64,000 nucleotides of DNA from a virus (IMGVR_UViG_3300037041_001930); one strand, 5' to 3'; positions 1,627 to 19,500 are shown, counted from the stretch's first letter. Numbers and translations: made by a program. The notes: generated by a model not told the origin, from the letters alone.

Positions 1627-3879
1627 TTAGCCGTCCATGGTTGAATTGATGCCGAGACCGTAGAACTCGGGGTCTCCTGATAGCGTGCGTTTGCGCAAGA
1701 AAATGACAAGGTCACCTAAGCCCTCAAAGGACGACTTCAGGTTGTCACCGAGTTCAACACTGTCTTCCTTGCCAAACTTCTCCTGGAACTCATCGTAGTG
1801 CCAGTGCATCAGGAACAGGATGCGACCGAGGCGGTCCATTCCGGCGACAATAGTGGGCAGGAAGCGCTCAATCATTTCAATGGGGGCGTGAGCCTTGGTC
1901 AGGCTACCGAGTACAGCGGAGTCAAAGACTTCTTTTTGGCCAGTCTTCGCGGCTTGATCAATGGCATCGAAGGGGTCCCCACCACCTTCGTTTTCGGCGT
2001 CTCCATGCCCAAAGGGCGAGAAGTATTGGTATTGCTGCCGATTGTCGGGGATCTGTGCCGGTCTCGCCTGGGTCTCCCAGGGCACCTTGGTTGTATGGAA
2101 ACTCGACATCACACCACCTTCAGAGGTGTCATTGATGTCGGGGAACGCCATCATGTTTTCAGAGGCGGCTTGCTTGACTAACCAGTTCTGAGGAGCCCGG
2201 AGGGCATGCTTGAGCATGCTGCGGGTGTCGACCTCGGAGCACCCGTGCTTCTTCATGAGATAGCTGATCGCAGCTGTCTTCCCGAAGTAGTGGCTGCCGA
2301 AATCATCCTTGATGTTGATTCCGGTTTCGTCGGTCCAGACTTTAACAGCACTGGCCTGCTTCTTGAGGACTTCGATGATCGTGTTGTGGTCGCCGAAGTC
2401 AGAAGCCTCGAGATGTTTTTCCAGACGGGCCTTCTCGCGATCATCCCAGCTCACCTTGGAGTCGTCTTCACGATTACCATAGACAACGGCACTGTAATAC
2501 TTCGAGTTCACGTACAGAGTTGAATTTGTTTTCTTGAGGTCACGGTTCCCGGCAGCGGAAACGATGACTTGGTCGCAGTCGTGTTCGCCAATGTAGCCCA
2601 AGGGGCGATTGATAGCGAAGACACCACGATCCTTGTGAGCGAAGCGCTCGGGGATCGAGCGGAGATCCCATGTGGAACCCCCATGGGTCTTATAGGTCGT
2701 GATGCCGTCATCACTGACCGCGGTGAAGACATCCAGGGGAGCCGAGGTCTTCACACCATCATTGGCGACGAAGATGACTTGGTCGCCAGGGCGAACTTTA
2801 TCGGCGCCCACGCTGACCTTCTCGAGTTCCTTGGCGAAATCGGTTTCCGTGTATTGCCGCAGAGTCGCGATGACACCAGATGCTGTGATACAGGTTTTTT
2901 CATCCGAGCATCGGATCACGAAGACCCTGCCGTTGTCCTGCGACATCGGGATCACAAGTGTGGGTTCCACGGAGCCGTCTGAATACAGGACGTCGTAGAG
3001 GCCGCCACCAGTGGGACTCGTGAGCTGCTGCTTGGTCTGCGTCGAGTACACAATGGACTTCGACATCTCGGGACGCTTGTCGACAACGGCGACGTCACCC
3101 TCGAGGATCTGCTTGCGTTGGGCATCCGTGAGGTCGTCGACGCCTTCTTGGTCAATGGTCGAGATCACAGTGATGGGCTCACCCTTTTGCTCCGCGGCGA
3201 GTTTAACAACACCGGGAACCGTGAAGGCGAGATCGGGGTAGAACTTACGAACCGCATTGGCGAGTTTAACATGCCCTGCGGTCTGGGGGTTCGTGATGGT
3301 ATCCAGGAACATCGAGGCGACATCGTGACCCATGGCTTCGAGCCCACTGGGGAGATCAATGGCACCCGCGATCTTGCGGATATGGGTAATCTTGTGGACG
3401 GGGACCACGGGGCAGCCCCCTGCTGATTTCCGAGCCGCGGCGCGTTTGGACAAACTGCTGCCACCACCATCGCCGTCGTAAATACCGGCGGGGAGCGTGC
3501 GGAGACGATTGTAGTCTGGGGTGCGGACCCCACGTTGGACCCGGTTCCGCTTGTCGGCTTCACCGAGAACCGTGGGACGACGATTGATAATCGAGTTGAC
3601 CCAGTCTTCACTCAAAGGCACGAAGAGGTCTGAGTTCACGGAGTAGATGGAATCGAGCCCCTTGATCTCACCGTTAAGGAAGAACACGGGGCTGTAATGC
3701 CAGTCCCCGCCGATCTCGAACGCGAACATGCCGACCGCACGACCGCCATCTTCATCGGCATCAATGAGTTGAAACCCGACGAGATAGTCGAGGAGAACCG
3801 GTGACTTATCACGGAGTCTGGCGTTGGCGAGATCAGAGAACGTCTGTTCCAGCGCGGACTCAGAGGTATCTTGCGGCAT
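1627..3879 (-). CDS. Hypothetical protein, 750 aa, probable head/internal virion protein with several K-x-A motifs
   Basis: Long ORF with AGGAG RBS; motifs SKRAAA, RKIAGA, VKLAAE, KKQASA, GKTAAI, VKQAAS. Function is inferred from context only. Confidence 0.8.
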   Translation of the reverse strand: MPQDTSESALEQTFSDLANARLRDKSPVLLDYLVGFQLIDADEDGGRAVGMFAFEIGGDWHYSPVFFLNGEIKGLDSIYSVNSDLFVPLSEDWVNSIINRRPTVLGEADKRNRVQRGVRTPDYNRLRTLPAGIYDGDGGGSSLSKRAAARKSAGGCPVVPVHKITHIRKIAGAIDLPSGLEAMGHDVASMFLDTITNPQTAGHVKLANAVRKFYPDLAFTVPGVVKLAAEQKGEPITVISTIDQEGVDDLTDAQRKQILEGDVAVVDKRPEMSKSIVYSTQTKQQLTSPTGGGLYDVLYSDGSVEPTLVIPMSQDNGRVFVIRCSDEKTCITASGVIATLRQYTETDFAKELEKVSVGADKVRPGDQVIFVANDGVKTSAPLDVFTAVSDDGITTYKTHGGSTWDLRSIPERFAHKDRGVFAINRPLGYIGEHDCDQVIVSAAGNRDLKKTNSTLYVNSKYYSAVVYGNREDDSKVSWDDREKARLEKHLEASDFGDHNTIIEVLKKQASAVKVWTDETGINIKDDFGSHYFGKTAAISYLMKKHGCSEVDTRSMLKHALRAPQNWLVKQAASENMMAFPDINDTSEGGVMSSFHTTKVPWETQARPAQIPDNRQQYQYFSPFGHGDAENEGGGDPFDAIDQAAKTGQKEVFDSAVLGSLTKAHAPIEMIERFLPTIVAGMDRLGRILFLMHWHYDEFQEKFGKEDSVELGDNLKSSFEGLGDLVIFLRKRTLSGDPEFYGLGINSTMDG

Positions 3880-3908: not shown

Positions 3909-6900
3909 TTAGCGTGGGGATCGCGGAGGGGAAGTCGGTAGCGGCGGCGTGCCATAAGACCCCGTGGTCTTCAGGGTATCCCCGAAACCAGTGGCCTTGG
4001 CGAGAGCGGGGACATAGGACGTCGAGTTGGGATCCGAGACCCTGGAGCGATGAACACTGTCCAGGAATCCTGAGGAGGTATAGAAACCGGATAGCCTGGT
4101 CTGCCAGTCATTGTCGTTGTAGACCCCGAGGACCCCCCGCTGCATCACGGGCTGGAAATCGGGTTCGTCGTCATGGGCGTCGACATCCTTGACCCCCCAC
4201 TTCTGGAGATCCCCGGCGACCTTCTTGGTAATCCGGGTTCCCGGGGTGTAGTGGAGCACGGGTTCCTCGAGGTACTTGCCGACCCCAGAGTTCGGAGCAA
4301 CCCGCTTGGTCCCTGCTCTGGCCTTGTAGGCCCCGGCGACTGAGTTGTAAGACGCGACATCATCGACGATGTGGTCACCGACCCCGTTGGGATTCGTGAC
4401 CTTGACCCAGTTGATGAGCCCGGCGACCACGGTCTCGATGTTGCGACGATGAGTCTTGATCCCTGAGTTCGTCAGAGCCTCCTGGAGCATCTCGGCGTAT
4501 CTGCGGCGGGCTTCCCCGACTCCCTTGAGCCTGACGAGCTGCTCGGGGTGCGGGGCGCCATCGCTGATGTCATCCCCGGCTTCCAGGGCATCTCCGGGCT
4601 TCACCACGGGTTCGACACCGGGGTGGAGATAGTAGTCGCGGTCATCCACGGTGACGAACTGGCCACCCTGGGGTGCCTTGCGGATCCCCTTGACGACACC
4701 ATCGACCTCGGCGAGTGGACCTGACTCCGGGAATGTTTCAGGAGATTCTATAACACGGTTGAGGTACTCGAAACCAGTACGAAGATTCTTTTTAGCCCCG
4801 ATGGCACCAGACTGGTGCTTTGAGTTACTTACGATCATGCCATTACCCAGCACGAATAGGTGGTCGGGGTGAGCTACCTCGATATCATAGACATGAAGAT
4901 GCCCGGCATCTGTCCTGTCTTCCTGACGCCACCACTCTTCGCGAGTAACGCTCTCAACTGCTGTCTTTATTCGGTCGGCCGCTCTCTCACACTTCACGCC
5001 AAATAACCGTATGCTTCTATAAAAACGAATAACATCCCGATATTTAGTAATGCAGACGTTGTAATGTCGTCTCTTTTTCTTCGAGTTGGAGCTGCTCTTT
5101 GTCGCATAGATGCCGAACCTAATGCGCAGCAACTCCATTACGCCATCGATGAGTTTCTCACTGCTAGATGCAAATGAAAACCCCATACCATCTTTTTTCC
5201 GACTAAATACTGAGCCGTCGGTGACAAACAACCCGGCCAGGAGCTCACTCACTGCCTGGTTATCCCATTGATTCACAAACGAAGGTATTTCTTTTTCATG
5301 CGCGTATTTCCCATAAAGACCCTCATCTCTGAACCACTGCAAAATTGGATTTTCAGTGACCGTGCGCATCACACGTCCCGTGATTGTATCCCTCACGATA
5401 CGCCCGTACGACCGCTGGCTCAACCTGGTCAACGCATAATAAATGGTCTGCCCCCCGCATATATGGAACTGTAAATCATGTGGTGCTAAGTAGCCATTGA
5501 GGTGGTCAATCTGAGTCTGGTCTGCACAGGAAAGATGGATCCCGGTCACTGATTCAGTGTAGCATCCGTCCCCGAGAAGCACCCCGAGCAACTTAGCTCT
5601 CCAATCGTAGATCAGATGATTTTCGCTAGATAGCCCTCCCTCACAACGTATTCCAGATGCTTTACTCATGTCTCCAATCGCGCACACGGCATCACGGTGC
5701 ATTTCCCCATACTCAGAACTATAGTGAATGTGCGTTAAAACCTTGTGGGCAGGGGTGCATGTAATGGTATGAAACGTATGGTGGCTACAGCTCTGTCTGA
5801 AACGATAAGTAACACACGGCTGTACACCATTATCAAACGTATGGGTAACCTCCACTGGAAAGGTCTTTCCGGAGATGTCTGCCCCAAGCACGAACTCACC
5901 AGGCTTTATGGTCTCTATCTGACGTAAGCTAAAGTCAGCCATGCGAACAAGCGTACCCTTGGATAGACAATTCAGGGACCCCTGCGACAACGGGGCGCCT
6001 ATGCTCTGGGCAGCCGCGATACCTATCGCATCCCCAATGTTACTGAGTTCTGTTCTGTCTCTGCGCCCTGCTGCGATACGTGAGATCCCCCCGTCTTCAG
6101 TGGGCTCTGTCATCGGGCTGTGAACCAAGATGTCCTCAACCCCATCCTCTGACAGAGATTCCAGTATGTCTGGTGTAATTCTCTCTCCGGCTTTATGTGC
6201 GCCTGCATCCCTGGCAAGCACCGCGCCGATGTTATCAGTGTCGCTGACCTTGGATGGTAGCCCAACTGGTAGCCTGGTCATGGGAGCAGTGTCTTTATTC
6301 ACGACGATACGATGCGCTGCGTTAGCCAACTTCTTGCTTAAAAACCCTGCGTCAGCTGTCGCGAGCTTGACCTCTAGCATACCTTTTCTCTGCCCATAGG
6401 TCCCTGCCCAGTATTCCACGGGATCCAGGCCTTCACTGAGGCTGTGGAGAATCGGGATCGGAACGATTTCATTGCGGTGGTCATTGACGAGACCAGATGC
6501 CCCACGAATCGCGTTGTAGTCTGACATCTTCCCACGGGCACCAGATTTAACCTGAAACCAATATGGGTTGTTCTCGGATTCACCGGACTCCTCGAGCGCT
6601 TTCTGCATCTTCTCGACCATTGGAAACATGACATCGGTGATGGCTTGCTTCTTAGCATCGGGGTCGAGGTCAGAGGTCTCAATGGCCATGACCCTGGAGC
6701 GCGCACGCTGTATCAGCTTTTTCTCTTTGTCTGTTTTCCTGAGCCCGCTGAGACTGACGCTGACACCCTCGGTGAACGCGGCATCCCTGCCGACATCGTT
6801 CATGGTCTTGATGACGTCTTTGTAGCGATCGGGGTACTTCTCGGCGATGTGCCGCAGAATCGACATCAGCTCTTTTTTGTCGATGGCTTTACCCCGGATC

Positions 6901-6959
6901 TGGAGTTCCGGGGGAAGGCTGTCATTGAGCAAAAGGGTGCCGACCGTGGTGGGGTCCAT
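3909..6959 (-). CDS. rpoC: DNA-directed RNA polymerase beta' C-terminal subunit (rpoC2-like), intein-containing; 634 aa after splicing
   Basis: VKSGARG, bridge helix GLDPVEYWAGTYGQRKGMLEVKLATADAGFLSKKL, trigger loop AAQSIGAPLSQGSLN|SKH; N-terminus IDKKELMSIL...GVSVSL resembles the start of RpoC2. Confidence 0.93.
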   Translation of the reverse strand: MDPTTVGTLLLNDSLPPELQIRGKAIDKKELMSILRHIAEKYPDRYKDVIKTMNDVGRDAAFTEGVSVSLSGLRKTDKEKKLIQRARSRVMAIETSDLDPDAKKQAITDVMFPMVEKMQKALEESGESENNPYWFQVKSGARGKMSDYNAIRGASGLVNDHRNEIVPIPILHSLSEGLDPVEYWAGTYGQRKGMLEVKLATADAGFLSKKLANAAHRIVVNKDTAPMTRLPVGLPSKVSDTDNIGAVLARDAGAHKAGERITPDILESLSEDGVEDILVHSPMTEPTEDGGISRIAAGRRDRTELSNIGDAIGIAAAQSIGAPLSQGSLNCLSKGTLVRMADFSLRQIETIKPGEFVLGADISGKTFPVEVTHTFDNGVQPCVTYRFRQSCSHHTFHTITCTPAHKVLTHIHYSSEYGEMHRDAVCAIGDMSKASGIRCEGGLSSENHLIYDWRAKLLGVLLGDGCYTESVTGIHLSCADQTQIDHLNGYLAPHDLQFHICGGQTIYYALTRLSQRSYGRIVRDTITGRVMRTVTENPILQWFRDEGLYGKYAHEKEIPSFVNQWDNQAVSELLAGLFVTDGSVFSRKKDGMGFSFASSSEKLIDGVMELLRIRFGIYATKSSSNSKKKRRHYNVCITKYRDVIRFYRSIRLFGVKCERAADRIKTAVESVTREEWWRQEDRTDAGHLHVYDIEVAHPDHLFVLGNGMIVSNSKHQSGAIGAKKNLRTGFEYLNRVIESPETFPESGPLAEVDGVVKGIRKAPQGGQFVTVDDRDYYLHPGVEPVVKPGDALEAGDDISDGAPHPEQLVRLKGVGEARRRYAEMLQEALTNSGIKTHRRNIETVVAGLINWVKVTNPNGVGDHIVDDVASYNSVAGAYKARAGTKRVAPNSGVGKYLEEPVLHYTPGTRITKKVAGDLQKWGVKDVDAHDDEPDFQPVMQRGVLGVYNDNDWQTRLSGFYTSSGFLDSVHRSRVSDPNSTSYVPALAKATGFGDTLKTTGSYGTPPLPTSPPRSPR
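4824..5969 (-). mobile_element. Intein with LAGLIDADG homing endonuclease (382 aa) in the RNAP trigger loop
   Basis: Starts CLSKGTLVRMAD and ends GNGMIVSN with Ser+1; LLGVLLGDGCY and LLAGLFVTDGSV blocks; visibly more AT-rich than the flanks; removing it restores QGSLN-SKH. Confidence 0.93.
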
Positions 6960-7177
6960 TATCGGGATCCAGTACGGATGACCTCAACGGGGGTCGGGGT
7001 CAAACCAAGTTTGCGAACCGTGGATGAGAAATCTGACTTCGTGGCATCGGTATGCGCAACCAACCCATTTTCCTCATACGACAGCGCCAGGGGTTGTCCG
7101 AAGTCATCGGTAACGACGACTTCGGCAACGCTGATGTGGATCTGGCGTCCATCGGAGAGTCGGATGCGAGCACGCAT
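6959..7177 (-). CDS. Small hypothetical protein, 72 aa
   Basis: TAATG overlap with the RNAP beta'-C start and 1 nt from the upstream stop. Confidence 0.7.
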   Translation of the reverse strand: MRARIRLSDGRQIHISVAEVVVTDDFGQPLALSYEENGLVAHTDATKSDFSSTVRKLGLTPTPVEVIRTGSR

Positions 7178-7178
7178 G

Positions 7179-8060
7179 TTACCTCTGCGCTAAAACGGGG
7201 GCAGTTGAACTCTTTGGTGCCGTGATCGCAGCTGTCGTGGCGCTCGCCGAGGGGTCTTCGACTGGTTGATTATTGACGGACACGATGCCTGACTTGGTAC
7301 CCTTGGCGACAGGTGGAAATGAGAGTGTCTTCTTAGGAGCACTCGCCGCAGACTTGGAGAGACCAAGTCGGGACAAGATTTCCTTGGCCATCTTCACCGT
7401 GTTGCCACCGATAGCGCTGGGGTCGAGTTGGCCACCCAGTGAACCCATGGGCCCACCGCCACCTTGGGGTTGGCCAGTGATAGCACCATTGGCCGTTGCG
7501 GCGGCGTCGGCATCCGACTTCTTGCCCTTGTTCTCTTGTTCTTTCTTCTTGCCTTCTTGTTCGAGCTCGAACTCGGCTTGAGCTTGTTCTTTGGTGCGGC
7601 CTTCACCAATGGAGGCCATGGCGCGTTCAACGATGCCCATGACGACATCGGCTTGTCCACGTGTCACGGAATCATCGGGACTACCCTTGACGTCAGGAGT
7701 TCCCGGAGCCGTGGGATCCGGGGCACCAGCGCTGGGGTCACCACCTGCGGCGGGGTCACCACCACCAATAGCACTCAGCATGTCGCCTTCGGGTGGCATG
7801 CCACCTGCAGCTGCGAGGTCACCGCCCGGTGGCATCCCACCCATGGCTGCAGGATCCCCGCCTGGAGGCATCCCACCCATGGCCATGGGATCACCGCCTG
7901 GAGGCGCCGGAGGAGCTCCTGCGGCGGCGGGGTCACCACCAGGAGGTGCACCACCAGCGGCGGCGGCGGGATTGCTGCCCGGAGGAGGCGCGGCCACAAA
8001 GGCCAGCTTCTGTGCGAACTCATTGAGGCTGCGTTGAAAGAGTCTTGCGGAGATGTCCAT
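7179..8060 (-). CDS. Gly/Pro/Ala-rich low-complexity protein, 293 aa (scaffold/internal-protein-like)
   Basis: GGDP(A/M)A(M/A)GGMPP repeats; QKLAF, VKMAK and SKSAAS motifs. Confidence 0.8.
   Translation of the reverse strand: MDISARLFQRSLNEFAQKLAFVAAPPPGSNPAAAAGGAPPGGDPAAAGAPPAPPGGDPMAMGGMPPGGDPAAMGGMPPGGDLAAAGGMPPEGDMLSAIGGGDPAAGGDPSAGAPDPTAPGTPDVKGSPDDSVTRGQADVVMGIVERAMASIGEGRTKEQAQAEFELEQEGKKKEQENKGKKSDADAAATANGAITGQPQGGGGPMGSLGGQLDPSAIGGNTVKMAKEILSRLGLSKSAASAPKKTLSFPPVAKGTKSGIVSVNNQPVEDPSASATTAAITAPKSSTAPVLAQR
7794..7901 (-). repeat. Three imperfect 36-bp tandem coding repeats (GGDxxAxGGMPP)
   Basis: Units at 7794-7829, 7830-7865 and 7866-7901, each (t/a)ggcat(g/c)ccacc...ccgcc(c/t)gg. 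Confidence 0.85.
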
Positions 8061-8079
8061 GGTGACCTCTAAAGGGTGT

Positions 8080-9096
8080 TCACTTTGTGGCGGGGCCAGT
8101 CGCGGTTACCGGAGGTGTCGATTTGATTGCACCGTTTGTGGCGCTGGCCGGAGGTGCTGGGGGTGTGATCGGGACTACCGCACCGTTTGTCGCACTGCCC
8201 GGTGACTTACGTTGTAGCTGTGCCAACTCCGCTTTCAGGTCATCATTCGTCGGCAATTTAACTGGTGGAGCCCCCACGGGATCAGGTTTTAATAGCATGT
8301 TCATTGGATTTATGTTATGCGCTGCGTCGAATATCTCCGGTCCAGCTTTATTCAAGTCTACATCGTTGCCAGCCTGTGGCTGCTTTTCCGGCGCTGTCGC
8401 TGGGGTTAGTGCATCCTGCGCTTTACCAAGCCCTTCCCGAATCTGGGGGAATGCCTTGTCGACATGGGGTCCCGCGAAGTAACCCGCGGTTCCGCCGGCG
8501 AGGGCAGCGATGAGAGCATTGCGCCACTTGTTCTTCTTACTCAGGAGGGCAGCACCCCCACCGGCGAGAGCGGCACCAGTAACGGCACCGATATTGGCGG
8601 GGTCCTTGTAGAACGGGGTTGTCGGGGCGGCGTCTTGGGCAGTCTTCTTGCCAACAACCTTAGCAGGGGCCACCTTTGGTGCAGGGGCTGCTTTTGGCAA
8701 CACGGCTGGCTTCGTCGCCGAGCGCGGGGCCATCTTGGCGCCAAGTGCTTCGAGAAAATCCGGTGAAGTCCCCACTGCGTTGCCATCGAAGTCGGCACGT
8801 GATGCCGCCGCTGTTTTGGCGACATCCTTGGCACCTGCTCCAGAGAGAGCACCGAGGCCCTGGCGGATCTGGGGGACCGCTTTGTCGACATGGGGACCCG
8901 CGACATAACCAGCGGCACCCCCAGCCAAAGCAGCGATGAGGGCGTTACGCAACTTGTTCTTCTTACTCAAGAGAGCTGCGCCACCACCGGCGAGAGTGGC
9001 ACCAGCGACGGCACCGATATTGGCGGGGTCCTCATAGAAGGGGACTTCAGCAGCTGTTTTAGTCAGGCACAGGGCAAGAAGACGTGTTGGGCGCAT
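8080..9096 (-). CDS. Gly-zipper membrane protein with an internally duplicated 64-aa hairpin module
   Basis: Two copies of PFYxDPANIGAVxGAxLAGGGAALLSKKNKxRNALIAALAGGxAGYxAGPHVDKAxPQIRxGLG, each preceded by KTA. Confidence 0.85.
   Translation of the reverse strand: MRPTRLLALCLTKTAAEVPFYEDPANIGAVAGATLAGGGAALLSKKNKLRNALIAALAGGAAGYVAGPHVDKAVPQIRQGLGALSGAGAKDVAKTAAASRADFDGNAVGTSPDFLEALGAKMAPRSATKPAVLPKAAPAPKVAPAKVVGKKTAQDAAPTTPFYKDPANIGAVTGAALAGGGAALLSKKNKWRNALIAALAGGTAGYFAGPHVDKAFPQIREGLGKAQDALTPATAPEKQPQAGNDVDLNKAGPEIFDAAHNINPMNMLLKPDPVGAPPVKLPTNDDLKAELAQLQRKSPGSATNGAVVPITPPAPPASATNGAIKSTPPVTATGPATK
8425..9042 (-). repeat. 192-bp direct repeat pair (8851-9042 and 8425-8616)
   Basis: Near-identical DNA and peptide in both copies. 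Confidence 0.9.
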
Positions 9097-9126
9097 GGTG
9101 GATTCCTACTATGGGTTATGGGATGA

Positions 9127-9158
9127 CAGGATAACAACTGGATCGGAGACACCAAGAT
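9127..9158 (-). repeat. 32-bp intergenic copy of the RNAP beta::beta'-N 3' end (partner 10134-10165)
   Basis: caggataacaactggatcggagacaccaagat vs caggataaccacggggtcggcgacaccaagat, 28/32 identical; reads LGVSDPVVIL vs LGVADPVVIL. Confidence 0.85.
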
Positions 9159-9165
9159 GGTGTGT

Positions 9166-10110
9166 TCATGGGGCAGGCTGGGCTTCCCCTTGTCTGCGGA
9201 TGGTATCGAAAACTACTTGTTGGGCCTTACGCCTCGCCGCTGCCTTGATCTTAGCCAATGCGATTTCCTGGGCTTTAATGGCAGCCGCGGAGCCGACTAT
9301 GCGCTCTACAGCTTTCACTTTTACCTGGGTCTCCGGGGATTTCCAGGCAGCTTTGGCGTCATCAACGGCCTCGCCTGCGATTTCCTTGCGGTCGTTCCAG
9401 ACATCAACGAGAGTCTTAAATATGGCTGAGTTCTTGAAATCGTCTTTATTCGAGTGCATCAGTGCCGCTGCTAAACGCTTGCCAGTATCCACTCGTGTCG
9501 GAGCAAAGACATTGCCTGCTCCAGTCATCGCGGCACGTGGGATGGTGTCACCGACGACATTGGGCAGCGTGAGCGCCTTCCGGGGCTGTGTGTAATCCTT
9601 GAATACGGGTTGTTCCTTGAATGTCCGCAGGAGCTCATCGAGGTAGACACGCCCCATCGCACGATTCACGGGGTTGGTGATATTCAGGGATCGCAAAGCA
9701 AACATGGGGAGATGCTCGGCGACCCGTGCAGGGGATACCGGCAACCCGGTTTCCTTCACGATCATGGCGGCCGCGGAATCATTGGCCCTACTGGCAGCAT
9801 CCCCGGCTGCGTATAGTCCGGTTCCCGCTGCGGTGGCCCCGAGCCCTGTGGCCAGGAACTTACCAGGTCTGGTGCCCATGCCCATGACAAGTCTGGGGAT
9901 CGAGGAGGGGCCCACCTTAGTGGTCCCCGTCCATTGCTGATACGGAGTCATCTGCCCCTTGGGGGTCATCACGGGTGTGTGGAATTTCTGCACGGCATCA
10001 GTGGCCTTGTTGACCACTGGTTTCACCGCGCTGACCCCGGACTTCGCCGCGTTCCATATCCCGCTAAGACTGGCAGCTGCGGTCTTCGAGATTACACAGG
10101 GCAGCCGCAT
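9166..10110 (-). CDS. Hypothetical protein with Gly-rich hydrophobic segment and N-terminal KTAA leader, 314 aa
   Basis: MRLPCVISKTAAAS...; FLATGLGATAAGTGLYAAG; TAATG overlap with the RNAP stop. Confidence 0.8.
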   Translation of the reverse strand: MRLPCVISKTAAASLSGIWNAAKSGVSAVKPVVNKATDAVQKFHTPVMTPKGQMTPYQQWTGTTKVGPSSIPRLVMGMGTRPGKFLATGLGATAAGTGLYAAGDAASRANDSAAAMIVKETGLPVSPARVAEHLPMFALRSLNITNPVNRAMGRVYLDELLRTFKEQPVFKDYTQPRKALTLPNVVGDTIPRAAMTGAGNVFAPTRVDTGKRLAAALMHSNKDDFKNSAIFKTLVDVWNDRKEIAGEAVDDAKAAWKSPETQVKVKAVERIVGSAAAIKAQEIALAKIKAAARRKAQQVVFDTIRRQGEAQPAP

Positions 10111-13100
10111 TACTTGGACCCCTTACCAGAGTTCAGGATAACCACGGGGTCGGCGACACCAAGATCCCCCCTGAGGTAGGCCTGGTAGGCGTCCTCCTTG
10201 GAGGCAAAGGTGCGCGGAGTCTTGTTCTTCTTGATACTGGTGGCCAAGTAGAGCCCGGCGAGATAATCCTTGTCAGGCTTGAGATGGACGTCGAAATCAG
10301 CGGGGTGCCAGAGGTTCTTCGAGGGCATCATCTTCTCGATGACATCCCTGACGGCGTCGTGATGCGAGGGCACATGCAAATTGATCTTGTCGCCGTCGAA
10401 GTCCAGGTTCGCCCCGGGTTCGACGACCTGGGGGACCCCAATGTTGTTGCCTCTGGAGAGCACGGGCCAGGCCCCAACATAGTTGTAGCGTTGCAGTGCA
10501 GGGGCGCGATCCCAGTACACGGGGCGAGTCTTCATCTCGTTCTGGAGCTCACGGAGTGCAGCGGGCTTCTGTTCCCGTACAGCCATGACGGCCTCACGAG
10601 CACTCCACCCCGATCGGACGAGACGCCGGATCACATAGGGGCGATACACGGTCCACGCCATGTCCTTGGGGATCGAGACCTGGTCCATGTCGAGTTCGGG
10701 GTCCGGGGTGGCGACACCACGACCCACGGTATCCACGGCCTGGCCGAGCACCTTGCGCTGGAATCTCGCAAACTTGGGGGAGTCGCCGACACCAATGGCG
10801 TTCTGGAGAAGCCCCTTGACGCCCTGTTCGACATGCTTGGGGTTAATGGGGGCACCTAGACCCGCGACGGCTTTGGCAGCCGCGTACATGGCACCGTATT
10901 CCTCACCGGCATCCCCAAAGGTCTTCTGGGCCTCCGTGTAATTCTTCCCGGACTCCATGAGATCATGGTAGAGATAGTTGGCGTCATGGATGATATCCAT
11001 TTTACCAGCACGTATAACAGGCCTGAACTTCGGAGGTATAACAGGGATCTTGGAGATCATGAGGTCTCCGGGATCGACGCCTGCGGACTTCAGACCACTG
11101 AGATAGTTGAGGGCACGGACATGGACATCACGGGATGACTTCGATCCCGTCTTGACCCCCTGGATGTGCATGGCGATCTCGCGTTCAACATTGATCCCCT
11201 TGAGCGCAGTCTCAATGGCTTCAGGCCCAGTCTTGTCGCCAATCTTCTCCTGCCCACTGAGGACATCGAGGAACCTCTGCTTGGTGAGGCCAAGTATCCG
11301 GATGATGGGTTCCTCCATCACGGGATTCGGGATCTTCTGGGGCAACTCGATCTTGGTGAAGTGGCGGCCATCGGCACCACCTGTCTTCGCGAGATCGAAG
11401 AGGCCGCCATCCTTGGGCTGCATGGTCTCGAAGTCAAAAGTCTCCGATGTCGAGACTGAGTGCTGGGCCAGGGCATCGGTGTCCGCATCAGTCATCGGGG
11501 CGAGCTTGAGCCTGCCCTGGTTCTCACGCACGTTGACCCCGGCACCCTTGAGGAGGGTGAGGAAGTGACCGTGTGCACCCGACGCCTCGGGCATCACGGG
11601 ATCCATACCAAGTTTCACGGAGCGCCAGTAGTCATCGTTGCGTTGCCCACGAATCAGCTTGGCGTCTTTCAAAACATTTGTGGCACCGGCACTTAGGAGG
11701 CATTGCACGCCAAGCAGAGCAATTTTCTTACTACCTGAGCTGCCACCTTTGGCAGGCGAATCATCGGATGTGTAACCCCCGGTGTCCCGTGCGGCGAGGC
11801 CAGACTCCGCGGTGTGATGTAACCGCATGAGATGCTGGACCCCAGTGAAGATGCCCTTGATCTTCCGCCCCGTCCTGGGATCAGTGACATCATCGAGTTC
11901 ATCGACACCGTTGGCCTTGGCCTCGTTCAACGCGAACTCACCGAGGTCATCGTGGTCAAATGATTTTAGAACGTATGGTTTCCCGGTTTTCTGGGCCACC
12001 TTACCTAGCAGGGTCTCCGCGAGCACTGATGGGTTCGCTCGGGAGATGACCCCAAGGGCATTAACGATGACATCCAAGGGCTTGCCATCCGCACCCACTG
12101 GCATCTCACCATCGGGAACTATCTGGGAGACGACACCTTTGTTGCCATAGCGTGCTGAGAGCTTGGAGCCCTCAGTCATGGGCTCCACACTGGAGATCAT
12201 GACCTTGATGCCCTTGCGGGTTCTCACGACATCTGTGACCTGACCGGGGGTCGAGTGATCCCAGGTCTGCGAGGCATCAGAGAACGCTGATCTCGCCGAT
12301 GGGGTGACGACCCCACCAGGTCTCGGGGTCTTCTTGCGCACCGCGAGGAGCACGGGATCCCCGGGCTGCACAATGGTGCCCTCTTTGATCACACCGTCGT
12401 CATCGATACCCGAGATCTGCTCAGGTTTGTACTTACCCTGGAAGATCGAGGAGTAATCCGCTTTCTTCGTGGAATGAATGTTCTTATCGAGTTCAAGTTC
12501 ATGTTTGTAGGCGTGCTGTGAGGACAGCCGGCGAGCCGCGGATTCCGAGATGACAAAACCATCTTCATATGTTCTGCCGCTTCCAACCATATAACCAACA
12601 TTTAAGTTTGTACCCAGTGTTGCCTGGCCTTTGTCATCCGTGAAGTTCGATTTCGCGAGGACATCCCCGGGTTTGAAACTATCACCTTCGCGAACCAATG
12701 GTGTGTTGTGCAGACTTGTTTTACGCGCCAGGGGGTAGTTGTTATACAACTCATGTCGTTCCTTCTTGCCCCCAGCGTAGACGACATCGATGTGGTCTGG
12801 TGTCACGGCGACAACACGCCCGGGTGCCTTGGCCTTCACGGCGCCCATCCAGGTACCCATGGAGTCATGAATCGAGGTGCCGTCGGGATTCGCGGCTTGA
12901 ACTAAAGGGGCCTCAGGCGCTTGTAGCGGGAGGGCCTGTGACGTCATTCTTGCCCCCATCAGGGTTCTCTGTGACTTCGCACCTTGGGTCATCGGGACCA
13001 TATTGGTGAGCCTGGAGAACATCGAGGACCCATGGGGGAGTTCGTAGTCGACCTCTGCGGCGGGCTTCCACTTAATGTCTTCGCCATCGAGAACGCGTAC

Positions 13101-14657
13101 CATCGGTGGCAATGGCTTCCCGAGACCGTGCATGCCCACGGACGCCGAGAGCTCGGGATCCCTGGAGATGTCATCCATGGTGACCACGTGGTCCACATAC
13201 TTTCCATCATCACCAGGCAGGGGTACCTTGTAGAACTCGCGCTTCGCCGCTTTCGCGAACTCACCAGGAAACGCAATGGGCTTCTGGGAGGCCTGAAGTG
13301 CAGACAGCGTGACTTCCTCACCCTTGCGTGATCGCACCTTGAAATAAAGGCGACCATCGGAACCCTTGAGGGCGCCATCGGTGAGACGCATGTCGACACC
13401 GATGTTCTGGCCTTCAGGTGCCCGGATGGGATCAATGATACCGAAGTAGCTGGGCTGGACACCGCGTGCTGAACGCGGTACGGCTTGGTTGGACGAAATC
13501 CCGCCCTCGCCGAGGCGCGTTATGGTCTGACGGGCATCCATGATCTCCAGGGGATTCGTGTCTTCCACTGAGCTCATGAGTCCACTTTGAAACACGCCAT
13601 CCACTGCTGGGTTCAGGAGTCCTGGGGATACGTTTCCAAGATTGCCCTCACGGGTCGCCCGCCACAGCAATTTTCGCATGGCGTCACTGCCACGACTCAA
13701 GCGTTCCTCGAAGAAGTCCTCGGGGCCATGGAAACTCTGAAAGGCCTGAGAATCCCGGACATCGTCGGGGACCTCATCACGACTCCGCTTCAACATCTTC
13801 GTAGTCGCATTCAACATGGTGTCGAGATTGAAATTCTTGTACTTGGCTCCCAGCGTGGTCTCAGTGGTTTCCTCGTCGAGCTCGGCTCTTCCAAGGATCT
13901 CATGGAGTTTGTCTTTGAGGAGTTCGGTTGCCGTGTCTTGGTCACCTCGACGCCCCATCTTGGCCACGATCTTACGAGCCTCCTGGGCGTCGTGCCCACC
14001 AGGTGGGCGCCAGTTCGCCTTGAATAGATCATCCCCCCAGGCTTCCCTGATGGTTGCATCGGGGACCCCCATGGATCTCAGCAAGGGGTACAGCCGGGTT
14101 CCACTCTGGCCCACGTTCAACTTGAACACGCCTGTGGAGGGCTCGAGCTGGAGATCGAAGCCCCGACCACTGCCTGGCTTCGGATTCACCTGAGCCTTGA
14201 CGTCCCCGTTCTGCTGGCGGAGCACGTAGACCCCGGGGCGCAGGCGCTGCTGGTTCTTGGCGGCCCAAATGGTGCCCCCGCGAACAAAGATGCCACGTGG
14301 GGTCAAATGGGGGACATGCGCAAGGGTGGTCTCGGTTTCATCGACGACTGCACCGGATGCCTTGTCGACCAAGCGAACCCTGCCCTTGATGGCGCGCTGC
14401 ATGCTCTGACGAGACATCAGCGCTTTCTTCTCATCACTGAGGCTGGGGTTGTAGTCCTGGGCGTAATCGGAGTCTGCGATCTCAACCCTGTACTTCTCAT
14501 TCTCGACAGGCTTCAGGGCACGGACCCCGCGCAGTGCATTCGAGTAGATGGCGTCGCGTTGTCCGCTGACGTCATCAAAACTTCTATGGGTCACCGGGGC
14601 TACGGGACTCGGGCTACCCACGGGGGTATCAAAGGCGCCTTTGAGATCGCCTATCAT
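10110..14657 (-). CDS. rpoB: DNA-directed RNA polymerase beta::beta'-N fusion subunit, 1515 aa
   Basis: beta motifs RLRPGVY, NPLE..TRLGEGG, PEGQNIGV, RMTSQALPL, GSKLSARYGNKGVVS, DVIVNALGVISRAN; then beta' motifs DGGLFD, IPVIPPKFRP, RKVLGQAVDTVGRGV, RAPALQR and catalytic NLDFDGD (10389-10409). Confidence 0.95.
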   Translation of the reverse strand: MIGDLKGAFDTPVGSPSPVAPVTHRSFDDVSGQRDAIYSNALRGVRALKPVENEKYRVEIADSDYAQDYNPSLSDEKKALMSRQSMQRAIKGRVRLVDKASGAVVDETETTLAHVPHLTPRGIFVRGGTIWAAKNQQRLRPGVYVLRQQNGDVKAQVNPKPGSGRGFDLQLEPSTGVFKLNVGQSGTRLYPLLRSMGVPDATIREAWGDDLFKANWRPPGGHDAQEARKIVAKMGRRGDQDTATELLKDKLHEILGRAELDEETTETTLGAKYKNFNLDTMLNATTKMLKRSRDEVPDDVRDSQAFQSFHGPEDFFEERLSRGSDAMRKLLWRATREGNLGNVSPGLLNPAVDGVFQSGLMSSVEDTNPLEIMDARQTITRLGEGGISSNQAVPRSARGVQPSYFGIIDPIRAPEGQNIGVDMRLTDGALKGSDGRLYFKVRSRKGEEVTLSALQASQKPIAFPGEFAKAAKREFYKVPLPGDDGKYVDHVVTMDDISRDPELSASVGMHGLGKPLPPMVRVLDGEDIKWKPAAEVDYELPHGSSMFSRLTNMVPMTQGAKSQRTLMGARMTSQALPLQAPEAPLVQAANPDGTSIHDSMGTWMGAVKAKAPGRVVAVTPDHIDVVYAGGKKERHELYNNYPLARKTSLHNTPLVREGDSFKPGDVLAKSNFTDDKGQATLGTNLNVGYMVGSGRTYEDGFVISESAARRLSSQHAYKHELELDKNIHSTKKADYSSIFQGKYKPEQISGIDDDGVIKEGTIVQPGDPVLLAVRKKTPRPGGVVTPSARSAFSDASQTWDHSTPGQVTDVVRTRKGIKVMISSVEPMTEGSKLSARYGNKGVVSQIVPDGEMPVGADGKPLDVIVNALGVISRANPSVLAETLLGKVAQKTGKPYVLKSFDHDDLGEFALNEAKANGVDELDDVTDPRTGRKIKGIFTGVQHLMRLHHTAESGLAARDTGGYTSDDSPAKGGSSGSKKIALLGVQCLLSAGATNVLKDAKLIRGQRNDDYWRSVKLGMDPVMPEASGAHGHFLTLLKGAGVNVRENQGRLKLAPMTDADTDALAQHSVSTSETFDFETMQPKDGGLFDLAKTGGADGRHFTKIELPQKIPNPVMEEPIIRILGLTKQRFLDVLSGQEKIGDKTGPEAIETALKGINVEREIAMHIQGVKTGSKSSRDVHVRALNYLSGLKSAGVDPGDLMISKIPVIPPKFRPVIRAGKMDIIHDANYLYHDLMESGKNYTEAQKTFGDAGEEYGAMYAAAKAVAGLGAPINPKHVEQGVKGLLQNAIGVGDSPKFARFQRKVLGQAVDTVGRGVATPDPELDMDQVSIPKDMAWTVYRPYVIRRLVRSGWSAREAVMAVREQKPAALRELQNEMKTRPVYWDRAPALQRYNYVGAWPVLSRGNNIGVPQVVEPGANLDFDGDKINLHVPSHHDAVRDVIEKMMPSKNLWHPADFDVHLKPDKDYLAGLYLATSIKKNKTPRTFASKEDAYQAYLRGDLGVADPVVILNSGKGSK

Positions 14658-15862: not shown

Positions 15863-16591
15863 TCAGAACCTCATGGATTGTTTGGGGGCCGTGCGCTTGG
15901 CAAGAATAGATGACAAAATCTTATTCGTGCGCTGTGACTTCAACTGATCCGCTTTCTGCTCTAGGAGTCGCTTCTCAACCATGACACGCTCGATGTCTTC
16001 ATCAGTGGCGTCTTCCCCAAAGATATGCCCCATTGTGGTCCCCGCGGTACCATAGAGCCCAGCGGACGCCGAGGTCACACCTTTGATCGGTGCGGTGACC
16101 AGAGTGGGGTCCACGAGAAACGAGGCGGCTTCCTTGACGTGACCAGTCTTACAGAACCCGGGGTGATCGATGAGCCCAGAGGCCCGGGCACCCTCGAGGT
16201 ACCCAAGTCTGACCGCGTTGCGGACGTCCCGCTCAATCGCGAGTTTAATGAGTTCTGCCGGCTTCATTTTTGCTGTCTCCATTCCAGTTTTCATATTGAG
16301 TAGCGTCCCCAACCCAGCCCCAATGGTCTTCATTGTCGACGCCGTGGAATCGCTGACCCCCAGCCACTTCGCCGCGAGGGCACCGATGCCGAGGCCGACG
16401 CCGGCGCCCAGGGCACCCTGGACGACCTGAGTAGGCGTGATCCAGGGTTTGGCTGCCGGCTGCTGAGCTGCGGCACGATCAATGATCTCAATGCTCTTCA
16501 CCTTGTCCCAAAGATTCAAGGATGGGTCAGTGAAGACCCTGTCCTTGGCATCGCTCACCGCGATCATAGCCGCTGCGGATTCCATAGTCAT
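15863..16591 (-). CDS. Gly-zipper membrane protein, 242 aa
   Basis: VVQGALGAGVGLGIGALAAKWLG; HVKEAASF motif; ATGA overlap. Confidence 0.8.
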   Translation of the reverse strand: MTMESAAAMIAVSDAKDRVFTDPSLNLWDKVKSIEIIDRAAAQQPAAKPWITPTQVVQGALGAGVGLGIGALAAKWLGVSDSTASTMKTIGAGLGTLLNMKTGMETAKMKPAELIKLAIERDVRNAVRLGYLEGARASGLIDHPGFCKTGHVKEAASFLVDPTLVTAPIKGVTSASAGLYGTAGTTMGHIFGEDATDEDIERVMVEKRLLEQKADQLKSQRTNKILSSILAKRTAPKQSMRF

Positions 16592-19500
16592 GGTTTCTTA
16601 CCTCCCGCCAAGCCCCAAGAACGCAGTTTTAGATCAGTATTGTTGGCTAAGCCAGTCAGGCTCCATCTGCTCGCCTTTGGTTTACCAATGCGGTTTCCAG
16701 TCAGATATGCCAGCAGGGCCTCAAACTGGTCATCGTTGATGCCTTTGAAATAGGGGTCCGAGGCCTCGACACGAGATTTCAAAAAACTGGGCATGAAGTC
16801 ATGTGCGAGTTCAAGGCTGTTAAAGAATCTGGCGTTATCAGGGGACTTCATCCACTGCTGCCATTTCCCCTCGTCTGCCGAAGCCTGCCGCATGACTTCC
16901 AAGCGCTCCTTGACCACCTTGGCACGATAATCATCCATCTTCTTGGGATCCGCCTTGATCTGTGCGAGAAGATCTGGATCCGTGGGTGGTGGGATCTCAC
17001 CACCTGCGTTGTTCAAGGACTGATATCTCTGGTATGCCCCATAAGCGCCACCACCTAGGACAAGTGCCCCCATGATGGCGCCGGCCTTACCACCCATGAG
17101 CATGAGCACGAGACCCACGGGGATCGCGGCGAGGTCGAGGTTGTACTTTTGCGCCCAGTCCATGCCCTCTTGGGCCTTCGCCTTGGCCTGATCCCATACC
17201 GAGGGGGCCTGAGGAGGCTTCGTGGCATCGGGGCTGGTGGGTGTGGCCTGCGTCGTCGCTGAGACAGTCGTGCTGGTAGCCGTGGTCTGCGGTGCCTGTG
17301 TCGACTTCCGCTTGGCAGCCTGTGATTTCGCCACCGCATCTGACTTTTCCTGCTGGGTCAACGCAGGGGTCCCCGTGTTGCCACCAGTCCCAGGAGGGGG
17401 CTGGGGAGCCGACGGGGGTGTCTTGATCGAGTTTGTGTACGTCTTCCCCATGTCGCCGGCGTCAGGAGTTGCCGGAGGGGGCTGTGACGTGGGCTGTTTC
17501 TGCATCCCCATCATATTCTTCGCCCAGTCTATGGCGCCCTCAGCCAGAGGCCTCATCGGCTTCACGACGTTTTCGAGAGGGGTCCCACCATCAGCGGATT
17601 CCGCGGCGAGCTTGCACCCACGCCCCCACACCTTTGCGAAAGCCTTCTTTGGGTTGCCAATTACAGGCGGAGTATTCGAGACAACAGGTTTCACGGGTTG
17701 GATCTCCGTAGGCTTGACCTTAGCGGGTTCTTGGGGTAGGGGAACCACTGGGGCTTTCGGTGCCTCGACTTTAGTAAGATTTTTCCGGTAAGCCTCGTAA
17801 TCCTTTATGGCCTGTGCTCGGTTTCCACCTGCTCTCTTGTCCCAGTACGCCGAACTCCAGCTCTGCTCAGCGGGATCCCCTGGTGGCGTCTGTGGTGTCG
17901 AGTGACCCCTGAAGCCGCCTGGGAACATGTCACGGTACACCTTGGGGTTCTCGTGCATGTGAGTGATGACATCCTCCCGGGTCACCGGGCGTGCATTAGC
18001 ACCCTCACCAATGCTCTGAGTGGGTTTTCCATCAGCACCCATGATGTATTCAGGTGCGGGTTGAAAGGGGTCAGGGGCTTCGCCTGCTTTGGCCTGGTGC
18101 TGCCGCCAGTACGCATCCATGTTCTTGAATGTCTCCGGGGACTTCGCAGCCCAGAACTCGGGGTGCGCGGTCTGATACCTGGATACCCCGGTGAGGTAGA
18201 GGCCTGGGTTGGTAAGCGGGGAGTCGACTTGGTACCCACGACGGATGGCCTCGGGGCTCACCTGCATGATGCGGCCAGTGGTCTTATTGAAAGTCCACGC
18301 CGGCGCATTGTCGCCCTGGGGATCCCACTTCGAGGAGTCAAACCCATAGGCTTGTTCCTTGAACCCCTTGGGGGCCTCCTGGCCCTCGGCGAGGTCATGT
18401 GAGTTACCCTTGGCATCGACGTAGTACCTGCCCTGCACAGCCGGGGGTTCTACTTTATCAAAGCCATACTTCTCTCCAAGTTCCTGTAACAGTTTATTGG
18501 TTGCCTCTGGGTTTACGAAAGTGTTATCTTTGAATCTCTCAAATCCAGCAGCGCCTCCCAGGGTATGGCCGCCTTGAGACCGGACATCCTGGTTCAGGGC
18601 GTGCAGGGAAGCATTGGCACGTGTAAATGGCGCCAGGACTGCCTTGGCCGTGGTCTCCGGGAGTCTGGACAACTTGGCCTGGAAAATGGACTCAGCGTTG
18701 GGATCCTTGGGGTCGATGTCCAGGCGCTGATACGCCGCGGCTTTCGCGGCCTCCCTGCGGTCCTCGAGTACGATGCGTTGGTTCTTCAGGGAGTCACCCC
18801 CCATGGAATCAAACCCGTATCTGGAGTTCATGGGGTTACCGGGTCCCCCGAATGTCTTCCCGCCCCATGAATACTTGTCACTGGTGCGATCGCTGCCCCG
18901 GTACTCGACGAGGAGATCCCCGAGTCCGTTCTTCTTGAGATCATCTACGATCTCTTGTTTTCTCAGCGCACCTCGCTGGAGCATCTTGGGCTTCATGACA
19001 TCCGTGTAATCCGTGGTCTTCACCCTGGCCTTGGCCATGATCTGCTCAGGTGTGAGCCCCGTGGAATCCGTGATCAGCTTCGTGGTCTCCGGGGCCCCCA
19101 GTGCCTGGATGTCCTGGGGGTCCATTAGGGTGTCCAGGATACCCTGGACCCCGCGGTGGATGGCATGTGGGGAGTTCCGGGAGATATCGAACCGAGGCTT
19201 CTCGCCAAACCCTGCCCCAGTGGAGAAATCGTTAATCTGCTGTGTCGCCGGCGCAATCGCCGTGGAGGCCTGCGATAGCACTGAGGCGAGTTCGTCGTGG
19301 GTCTTCACGGACTCCAGGTTATTGACGATGCCATCAGTCTTGGACTGCCAGTGGGCCTGAGCACGTTGCGCCAACTGGTCCTTGTACGCCGCGGGGAGGT
19401 GCATGTATAACGGACTGGTGTCCAGGGCATCCCGCACCGTTGTCCTCACGCGATCATGAGTCGCCGCAACTGAGGTCCTCGCGATGTCCCTGAGATCACG

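Follow-up and report, generated by a model that had tools for sequence, protein, structure and literature searches.

A phage RNA polymerase with the beta subunit fused to the N-terminal part of beta' and the rest of beta' encoded by a separate, intein-containing gene

How is the catalytic core of an RNA polymerase put together in a phage that joins the beta subunit to one part of beta' and encodes the other part of beta' several genes away? The question is raised by a locus at positions 3909-14657, on the minus strand, of a 64,000-nucleotide (nt) stretch of virus DNA (the window, to which coordinates refer unless another record is named), which corresponds to bases 18590-82589 of the 171,559-base IMG/VR record IMGVR_UViG_3300037041_001930 (79% complete according to CheckV). 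The source is a large uncultured freshwater phage, and its genome is probably about 217 kb long, since a 217,040-base contig carries a protein identical to the second polymerase chain described here. An initial annotation, made without database searches, had proposed that one open reading frame (ORF) runs from beta directly into beta' and that a second ORF supplies the remainder. Our analysis confirms that this fused-and-split architecture is real, and the explanation we favor is as follows. The phage encodes an RNA polymerase of the bacterial, two-barrel type whose catalytic core would consist of two polypeptides. In the first, a complete beta would continue directly into the N-terminal part of beta', equivalent to roughly 540 residues of the E. 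coli subunit; this part contains the clamp and the dock as well as the NLDFDGD loop that binds Mg. The second would comprise the remaining beta', that is the bridge helix, trigger loop, jaw and C-terminal modules, and its precursor of 1016 amino acids (aa) would have to lose an intein to yield a 634-aa active subunit. The covalent link between beta and beta' probably replaces the assembly platform formed by the alpha dimer and omega. The enzyme belongs to an extensive family encoded by phages with genomes of about 180-226 kb. By analogy with a cultured relative, Salmonella phage Arash, it would most likely be produced together with the head proteins, carried in the virion and delivered into the host to transcribe early genes. 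Taken as a whole, with a two-chain core, a spliced intein, a single fission and virion delivery, we judge this explanation to be quite probable.

The gene for the first chain (P0001, 1515 aa; 10110-14657, minus strand) was delineated by its ORF, Pfam, a family hidden Markov model (HMM) and AlphaFold2 (AF2). Its beta module extends, according to the family HMM, from aa 1 to about 1045 (nt 14657-11523), and includes the Pfam domains Rpb2_3 (364-426, E 2e-7) and Rpb2_6 (648-963, E 2e-40). The N-terminal beta' module (beta'N), assigned by structural alignment to aa about 1047-1515, includes Rpb1_1 (1186-1239) and Rpb1_2 (1305-1369). By phmmer and the family HMM, residues 51-1339 of the 1342 residues of E. 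coli beta align to P0001 up to aa about 1045, and residues 160-550 of E. coli beta' align to P0001 1133-1506. An AF2 model of P0001 residues 985-1515, built with 53 homologues (mean predicted local distance difference test score, pLDDT, 85.6), superposes on E. coli beta' 17-557 over P0001 1047-1515 (Z 22.2-22.5, about 463 residues aligned); the superposition starts at model residue 63, which is P0001 residue 1047, and a confident beta-hairpin spans the joint. Given that E. coli beta is followed to residue 1339 at aa 1045 and beta' is taken up from residue 17 at aa 1047, beta passes into beta' without a linker, with trimming of about 3 residues on the beta side and about 16 on the beta' side. 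The joint had been placed near 11500-11530, and alignment to E. coli beta and beta' narrows it to about 11517-11525 (aa 1045/1047), in agreement with the HMM, the AF2 model and contigs that bridge it.

The active-site residues expected of the first chain are in place. The catalytic Mg-binding loop NLDFDGD (aa 1417-1423; 10389-10409) aligns to E. coli beta' 458-464, the D.DGD triad is present throughout the family, and the lysine motif of beta, YGNKG at P0001 aa 837 (HGNKG in E. coli), is also found family-wide. As the initial annotation had noted, the chain ends soon after NLDFDGD; 92 aa follow the motif, bringing the C-terminus to about residue 557 of E. coli beta'. The stop codon is genuine, because the C-terminal tail, AY.RGE....P..IL, is conserved across more than 100 homologues. 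At the other end the protein begins MIGDLKGA, where relatives have QGL or KGL after leaders of variable length.

The remainder of beta' (beta'C) is encoded at 3909-6959 on the minus strand (P0002), as established by the ORF, Pfam and alignments, with 634 aa of extein in the 1016-aa precursor. Pfam detects Rpb1_5 at aa 177-331 and LAGLIDADG_3 at 571-650 (E 4e-15). The protein starts with MDPTTVGTLLL, which is the conserved TT(V/L)GR segment (E. coli beta' 572-576; M. tuberculosis 665), and this N-terminus is conserved family-wide. Residues 123-335 align to E. coli beta' 713-938, in line with the bridge helix and trigger loop previously read from this ORF; the bridge helix lies at aa about 195-215, and the C-terminal modules are present as well. 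The two polymerase genes are separated by about 3.1 kb and four ORFs (314, 338, 293 and 72 aa), making beta'C the fifth gene downstream and not, as had been counted, the fourth.

The beta'C precursor is interrupted in its trigger loop by a LAGLIDADG intein of 382 aa (P0002 aa 331-712; 4824-5969, minus strand), recognised from its motifs, Pfam and empty alleles. The insertion site, SLN/SKH, corresponds to E. coli beta' R933/T934, two residues ahead of the trigger-loop His936. The blocks of a class 1 intein are present (C331, TPAH at 402, the two LAGLIDADG motifs LLGDG at 461 and LFVTDG at 577, and N712/S713), and without the intein the protein measures 634 aa, as intein-less homologues do. The closest of these, P0123, is also 634 aa long, is 90% identical, carries the site as LN/EKH and is encoded on a complete 216,043-bp genome. 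Intein-less alleles also occur in near-identical strains from metagenome runs X3 and X5, where contigs join 4802/4810 to 6004/6043, and X4 contigs retain the intein. The guanine plus cytosine (GC) content of the intein is 48.3%, compared with 55-61% for the exteins, and the same site is filled in at least 15 clusters. That the site is empty in P0123, X3 and X5 and occupied in X4, together with the low GC content, shows that the intein is mobile; it probably splices out. The spliced trigger loop would read SLNSKH, of which K332 and H333 are invariant in 30 homologues. Eukaryotic Rpb1 has the trigger loop TLNTFH, which the Leu-Asn of spliced P0002 (aa 326-335) resembles; bacteria have Met-Arg at this place, and the single-chain relatives considered below have a bacterial-like TLRVFH.

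This organization is not a peculiarity of one contig. The beta/beta' joint is spanned by contigs of independent sequencing runs on lake water and sediment, among them X3 record 15 (10676-11582, 7 mismatches) and longer contigs from X4 and X5. More than 100 protein clusters contain the same fused chain, beta::beta'N (1440-1545 aa when insert-free), about 110 clusters contain a stand-alone beta'C, and relatives of beta'C are encoded by 194 IMG/VR contigs. Among the 80 loci from these contigs covered by our synteny counts, beta::beta'N lies upstream of beta'C on the same strand in 73, and a 750-aa Gp218-like gene lies downstream of beta'C in 77. The same layout occurs in cultured phages, namely Salmonella phage Arash (OQ632216) and Vibrio phages D69, D148 and D181, whose 1525/1527-aa beta::beta'N and 606/609-aa beta'C (Arash Gp206, 1525 aa, and Gp216, 606 aa) belong to the same split clade; identity to P0001 is 29-30% over 97-98% of its length. 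The locus shares with the Arash-type family a first chain whose conserved tail closes it about 85-92 aa past DFDGD, a stand-alone beta'C (about 600-650 aa), a portal gene upstream and a Gp218-like gene downstream. Arash differs in that Gp216 has no intein, a Cys4 zinc (Zn) site is kept in beta'C, sigma70-like genes are present, an SNF2 helicase gene adjoins beta'C and the 72-aa gene is undetected. At the nucleotide level, megablast found no match to the region among 50,697 phage records. The layout is common to hundreds of phages, and a misassembled junction, which the initial annotation had allowed for, is contradicted by the independent contigs and the cultured genomes.

Is such an enzyme new? 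In Helicobacter and Wolbachia, rpoB-rpoC fusions join the C-terminus of beta to the N-terminus of beta' in one frame, and these enzymes are cellular, their beta' is full-length, and alpha, omega and sigma accompany them. The phage fusion differs in that only the N-terminal part of beta' is the fusion partner and that about 16 beta' residues are trimmed. The split of beta', in turn, has a counterpart in the RpoC1 (gamma) and RpoC2 subunits of cyanobacteria and plastids, where beta' is likewise broken in the linker that follows the catalytic barrel. The P0001 model superposes on Synechococcus gamma 7-564 (Z 22.6), and the end of phage beta'N corresponds to gamma residue about 564 of about 624, so that gamma continues for about 60 residues and keeps the TTxGR segment, which opens beta'C in the phage. 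RpoC2 residue 3 aligns to P0002 residue 21, placing the start of RpoC2 about 18 residues inside phage beta'C. The phage break is therefore in the same linker, about 20 alignable residues upstream of the cyanobacterial break, and its earlier description as cyanobacterial-like holds for the post-barrel linker but not for the exact residue. The cyanobacterial and plastid enzymes further differ in having a separate rpoB as well as alpha, omega and sigma, and the phage trigger loop has no SI3 insertion.

Among phage enzymes, the phiKZ/AR9-type polymerases (PMC7598289, PMC7824862) are likewise phage-encoded and without alpha, omega or sigma, one enzyme is packaged in the virion, and beta' is split just past the double-psi barrel. 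In both the virion and non-virion enzymes of phiKZ type, the beta' split coincides with the cyanobacterial one (PMC7598289), and the claim that these enzymes are split differently thus stands for beta only. Their beta is in 2-3 pieces and never fused to beta', whereas the family described here has beta in one piece; they are also far more diverged from bacterial polymerase and are encoded as two paralogous sets per genome, compared with one here. That beta' is broken in the same linker in cyanobacteria and plastids, in phiKZ-type phages and in this family suggests that the linker is a permissive seam. The mReC polymerases (Weinheimer and Aylward 2020, PMC7481178) resemble the present enzyme in that their beta and beta' are of bacterial type and come from large tailed phages that are uncultured, but among the supplementary entries compared, beta (1004-1364 aa) and beta' (904-1004 aa) are on separate genes. 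Membership in mReC was considered and rejected on this difference and on the absence of the queried contigs of our family from the tables of that paper, which mentions no such fusion or split. An enzyme composed of beta::beta'N plus beta'C is not described in PMC7598289, PMC7824862 or PMC13282480, and our literature searches found no description of a fused phage rpoBC. The Arash paper labels the proteins beta and beta' without comment on a fusion (PMC10585845), and the Arash and Vibrio genes are annotated only as 'beta', 'beta-prime' or 'hypothetical'. The combination, unfamiliar to the initial annotation, was found in no paper and is apparently undescribed, yet it is standard in a large clade with sequenced isolates.

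How the two chains arose is suggested by eight clusters in which beta and beta' are both complete and form a single chain (1963-2586 aa). One such protein, P0115 (2145 aa), is encoded on a 189-kb phage contig (L007), and the P0001 and P0002 exteins (1515 + 634 aa) are colinear with it at 27-30% identity, with the break at P0115 residue about 1490-1495 and nothing lost. These single-chain polymerases share the linker-less joint and the lack of a Zn finger, and differ in their continuous beta' and their trigger loop. A FastTree phylogeny was computed from 915 conserved columns, with E. coli beta plus beta' as the root. In it, Arash, D69 and all other split forms, 109 in total, group together as one clade (support 1.0), and the single-chain forms are basal. 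Since bacterial beta' is continuous and the split forms are one clade, one fission is the simplest history, and the ancestor was likely a single beta-beta' chain that was cut once, after the beta' barrel.

What, then, is the enzyme used for? Every gene from the portal gene down to position 1 lies on the minus strand, in a tightly packed block in which stop and start codons overlap or are 1-2 nt apart (TAATG, TAACCATG). The portal gene (22290-24161, minus strand), identified by tblastn to Arash portal gp204 (E 1.5e-56) with weak SPP1_portal and phrog_64 matches, heads this co-directional block, which includes both polymerase genes, and the gene directly after beta'C (1627-3879, minus strand) encodes the 750-aa homologue of Arash Gp218. 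In Arash virion preparations, Gp206 gave the most spectra of any protein (3516, at 100% coverage), above the major capsid protein, and Gp216, the sigma factor Gp10 and Gp218 were detected as well (PMC10585845). Because of these proteomic data and the conserved position inside the portal-to-capsid block, we lean towards an enzyme that is delivered in the virion for early transcription. The principal alternative is that it is a non-virion polymerase for middle or late genes, like the phiKZ non-virion RNA polymerase (nvRNAP). Early genes would then be read by the host polymerase, perhaps redirected by phage sigma-like factors, and the Arash signal would be carry-over, an explanation that the Arash authors themselves raise (PMC10585845). 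The sigma70-family proteins of Arash and D69 could indeed act on the host polymerase. Each complete relative, moreover, has exactly one Rpb2_6 match, so that the search for a second polymerase set, proposed in the initial annotation, uncovered a single set per genome and no virion/non-virion pair. We nevertheless consider this alternative unlikely, given that Gp206 tops the Arash virion spectra at full coverage, ahead of the major capsid protein, and that in 70-plus loci the genes sit inside the portal-to-capsid block and are coupled to it in translation. That position implies late co-expression with the head proteins, which is the wrong timing to start middle transcription.

Assembly of multisubunit polymerases is thought to require the platform that an alpha dimer provides. 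Pfam models for alpha (PF01193, PF01000) and omega (PF01192), which were positive in 14/14 control genomes, had no match in the record or in four complete relatives of 216-226 kb. Sigma models (PF04542, PF04545, PF04539, TIGR02937) had no match in the 171.5-kb record, a search that covers about 79% of the roughly 217-kb genome, nor did tblastn detect a homologue there of the sigma proteins of Arash and D69 or of the SNF2 helicase of Arash; the reported lack of alpha, omega and sigma genes thus extends from the window to the record. Among complete relatives the closest is G001, a genome of 216,043 bp with terminal repeats. It encodes a 354-aa ORF (L094:1483-2547, minus strand) with weak, colinear matches to Sigma70 regions 3 and 4, for which the best PDB match is RpoS, and which may be a diverged sigma. 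By synteny its counterpart would lie about 28 kb before the start of our record and may simply be missing from it.

Both Zn sites of beta' are affected as well. The Zn finger (E. coli Cys70/72/85/88) is absent: P0001 1046-1140 contains no Cys, and only about 38 P0001 residues match E. coli beta' 65-159. The second, Cys4 site (E. coli Cys814/888/895/898) is absent from P0002 and from its clade consensus, whereas the Cys residues are retained in Arash, D69 and P0115. Could the protein then be a decaying or non-catalytic relic with a structural role in the capsid? Besides the loss of both Zn sites, such an idea could draw on the trigger loop, SLN-SKH in place of the bacterial TMRTFH, and on an active centre interrupted by an intein. 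We think it very improbable, since the Asp triad and the GNKG Lys motif of beta are found family-wide, the Lys-His pair of the trigger loop is invariant in the aligned beta'C set, and frames are intact in a large family that reaches down to about 30% identity. With its catalytic residues intact and conserved through such divergence, the enzyme is, as judged from its sequence, a working polymerase.

Rejoining of the chains into one beta-beta' by protein trans-splicing at the break, which might be entertained in a family heavily colonised by inteins and with single-chain relatives, is scarcely credible, given that no intein blocks occur at the C-terminus of P0001 or the N-terminus of P0002, that both ends align directly to contiguous P0115 and bacterial beta' sequence, and that Gp206 and Gp216 are separate entries in the Arash virion proteome table (PMC10585845). 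An artefact of assembly or gene calling (a chimeric contig, or a frameshifted or intron-interrupted single gene) is just as implausible: the source is a metagenomic contig and relatives have introns and inteins in their polymerase genes, but contigs from other studies span the joint, cultured phage genomes have the identical layout, the beta'N tail and the beta'C N-terminus are conserved family-wide, and the intervening 3.1 kb with its four ORFs contains no Rfam intron (a search of window positions 1-25000 found nothing).

Several observations weigh against one part or another of the favored explanation. With regard to delivery, virion packaging rests on one proteomic study of a 29%-identical relative, whose authors consider both packaging and carry-over of an abundant protein to be possible (PMC10585845), and metatranscriptome contigs from X16 cover parts of both genes, although such libraries can hold DNA and do not count as evidence of expression. 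With regard to origin, the tree is rooted solely on E. coli, whose branch is long, and nodes at the base of the family have supports of only 0.38-0.66, so that fission as opposed to fusion leans on the state of the outgroup. With regard to splicing, the penultimate residue of the intein is Ser and not the usual His (end VSN); homologous inteins at the same site in other clusters also end IVSN/SKH, however, which argues for a family trait and not a lesion. That the sigma searches yielded no initiation factor in the 171.5-kb record, when Arash and D69 encode sigma70-like proteins, and that this clade has lost the second Zn site are further points against.

Of the four ORFs that separate the two polymerase genes, three (314, 338 and 293 aa; 7179-10110, minus strand) match no Pfam or PHROG family, have homologues in 0, 2 and 2 of the 80 related loci, respectively, and lie in a region that is substituted in related strains; they are accessory genes and not polymerase subunits. 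The product of the 293-aa ORF (7179-8060, minus strand) is of low complexity, with GGMPPGGDP and AAAGG repeats and a charged centre, and is found in the nearest relatives only. In related strains a 1062-nt insert (a 351-aa ORF in L009) lies between the 72-aa gene and beta'C, and compared with the X4 and X5 contigs and L009, the insert and replaced segments are seen at 6961/6969 and 8061-9113. The space between the polymerase genes is a variable cargo site. The conserved 72-aa ORF (6959-7177, minus strand) stands apart: its stop codon overlaps the beta'C start (TAATG), and positional homologues are found immediately upstream of beta'C in most loci of its clade. Its AF2 model (pLDDT 91) has five strands and one helix. 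The protein has no Pfam family, Foldseek returned no PDB match at E <= 0.001, the best Z in VIA-align was 2.4, and its HMM had no match in the Arash, D69 or P0115 loci. We regard it as a candidate accessory factor.

A more far-reaching proposal, which we offer tentatively and hold to be rather doubtful at present, is that multisubunit polymerases of phages include a third, independent lineage, represented by this family. Its minimal core of one or two chains would operate without alpha, omega or a canonical sigma, would be delivered in the virion and would rely on an unrecognised start factor, for which the 72-aa protein coupled to beta'C and the 354-aa sigma-like protein of G001 would be candidates. 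If this were true, the single- and two-chain forms would be a natural experiment on fusing and cutting the large subunits. A tethered beta-beta' that dispenses with alpha, omega and both Zn sites, and that exists in one-chain and two-chain versions, offers a compact system for the question of the minimal core. The cultured members, Arash and the Vibrio phages, make both the biochemistry and virion delivery directly testable.

The polymerase genes of the family are also a frequent target of mobile elements. Across the clusters P0003-P0120 and P0124-P0232, with insert sites mapped by pairwise BLAST because hmmalign placement of inserts is unreliable, there are at least 13 intein sites in beta::beta'N and at least 4 in beta'C. 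Those in beta::beta'N are, for example, before YGNKG, at DPIRAPE/, LGEGGI/ and AKGG..G/, and right after DFDGD/; of those in beta'C, the bridge helix and the trigger loop contain two each. All of the family's sites fall at active-centre motifs. The beta::beta'N of the window has no intein, and relatives 96-97% identical to it have one or two. In Vibrio phages D181 and D148 a group I intron with a homing endonuclease ORF interrupts beta::beta'N (in D181 at L089:4988-5268, OZ196140; Rfam RF00028, 100.7 bits), and the D69 gene is uninterrupted. These insertions at active-centre motifs, at least 17 intein sites in total plus a group I intron, make the family a rich natural resource for work on intein homing.

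Finally, between the portal gene and the polymerase genes lies a 1901-aa ORF (16588-22293, minus strand), which has no Pfam or PHROG match and is not found at the corresponding place in Arash and D69; its product might be an ejected or internal head protein.

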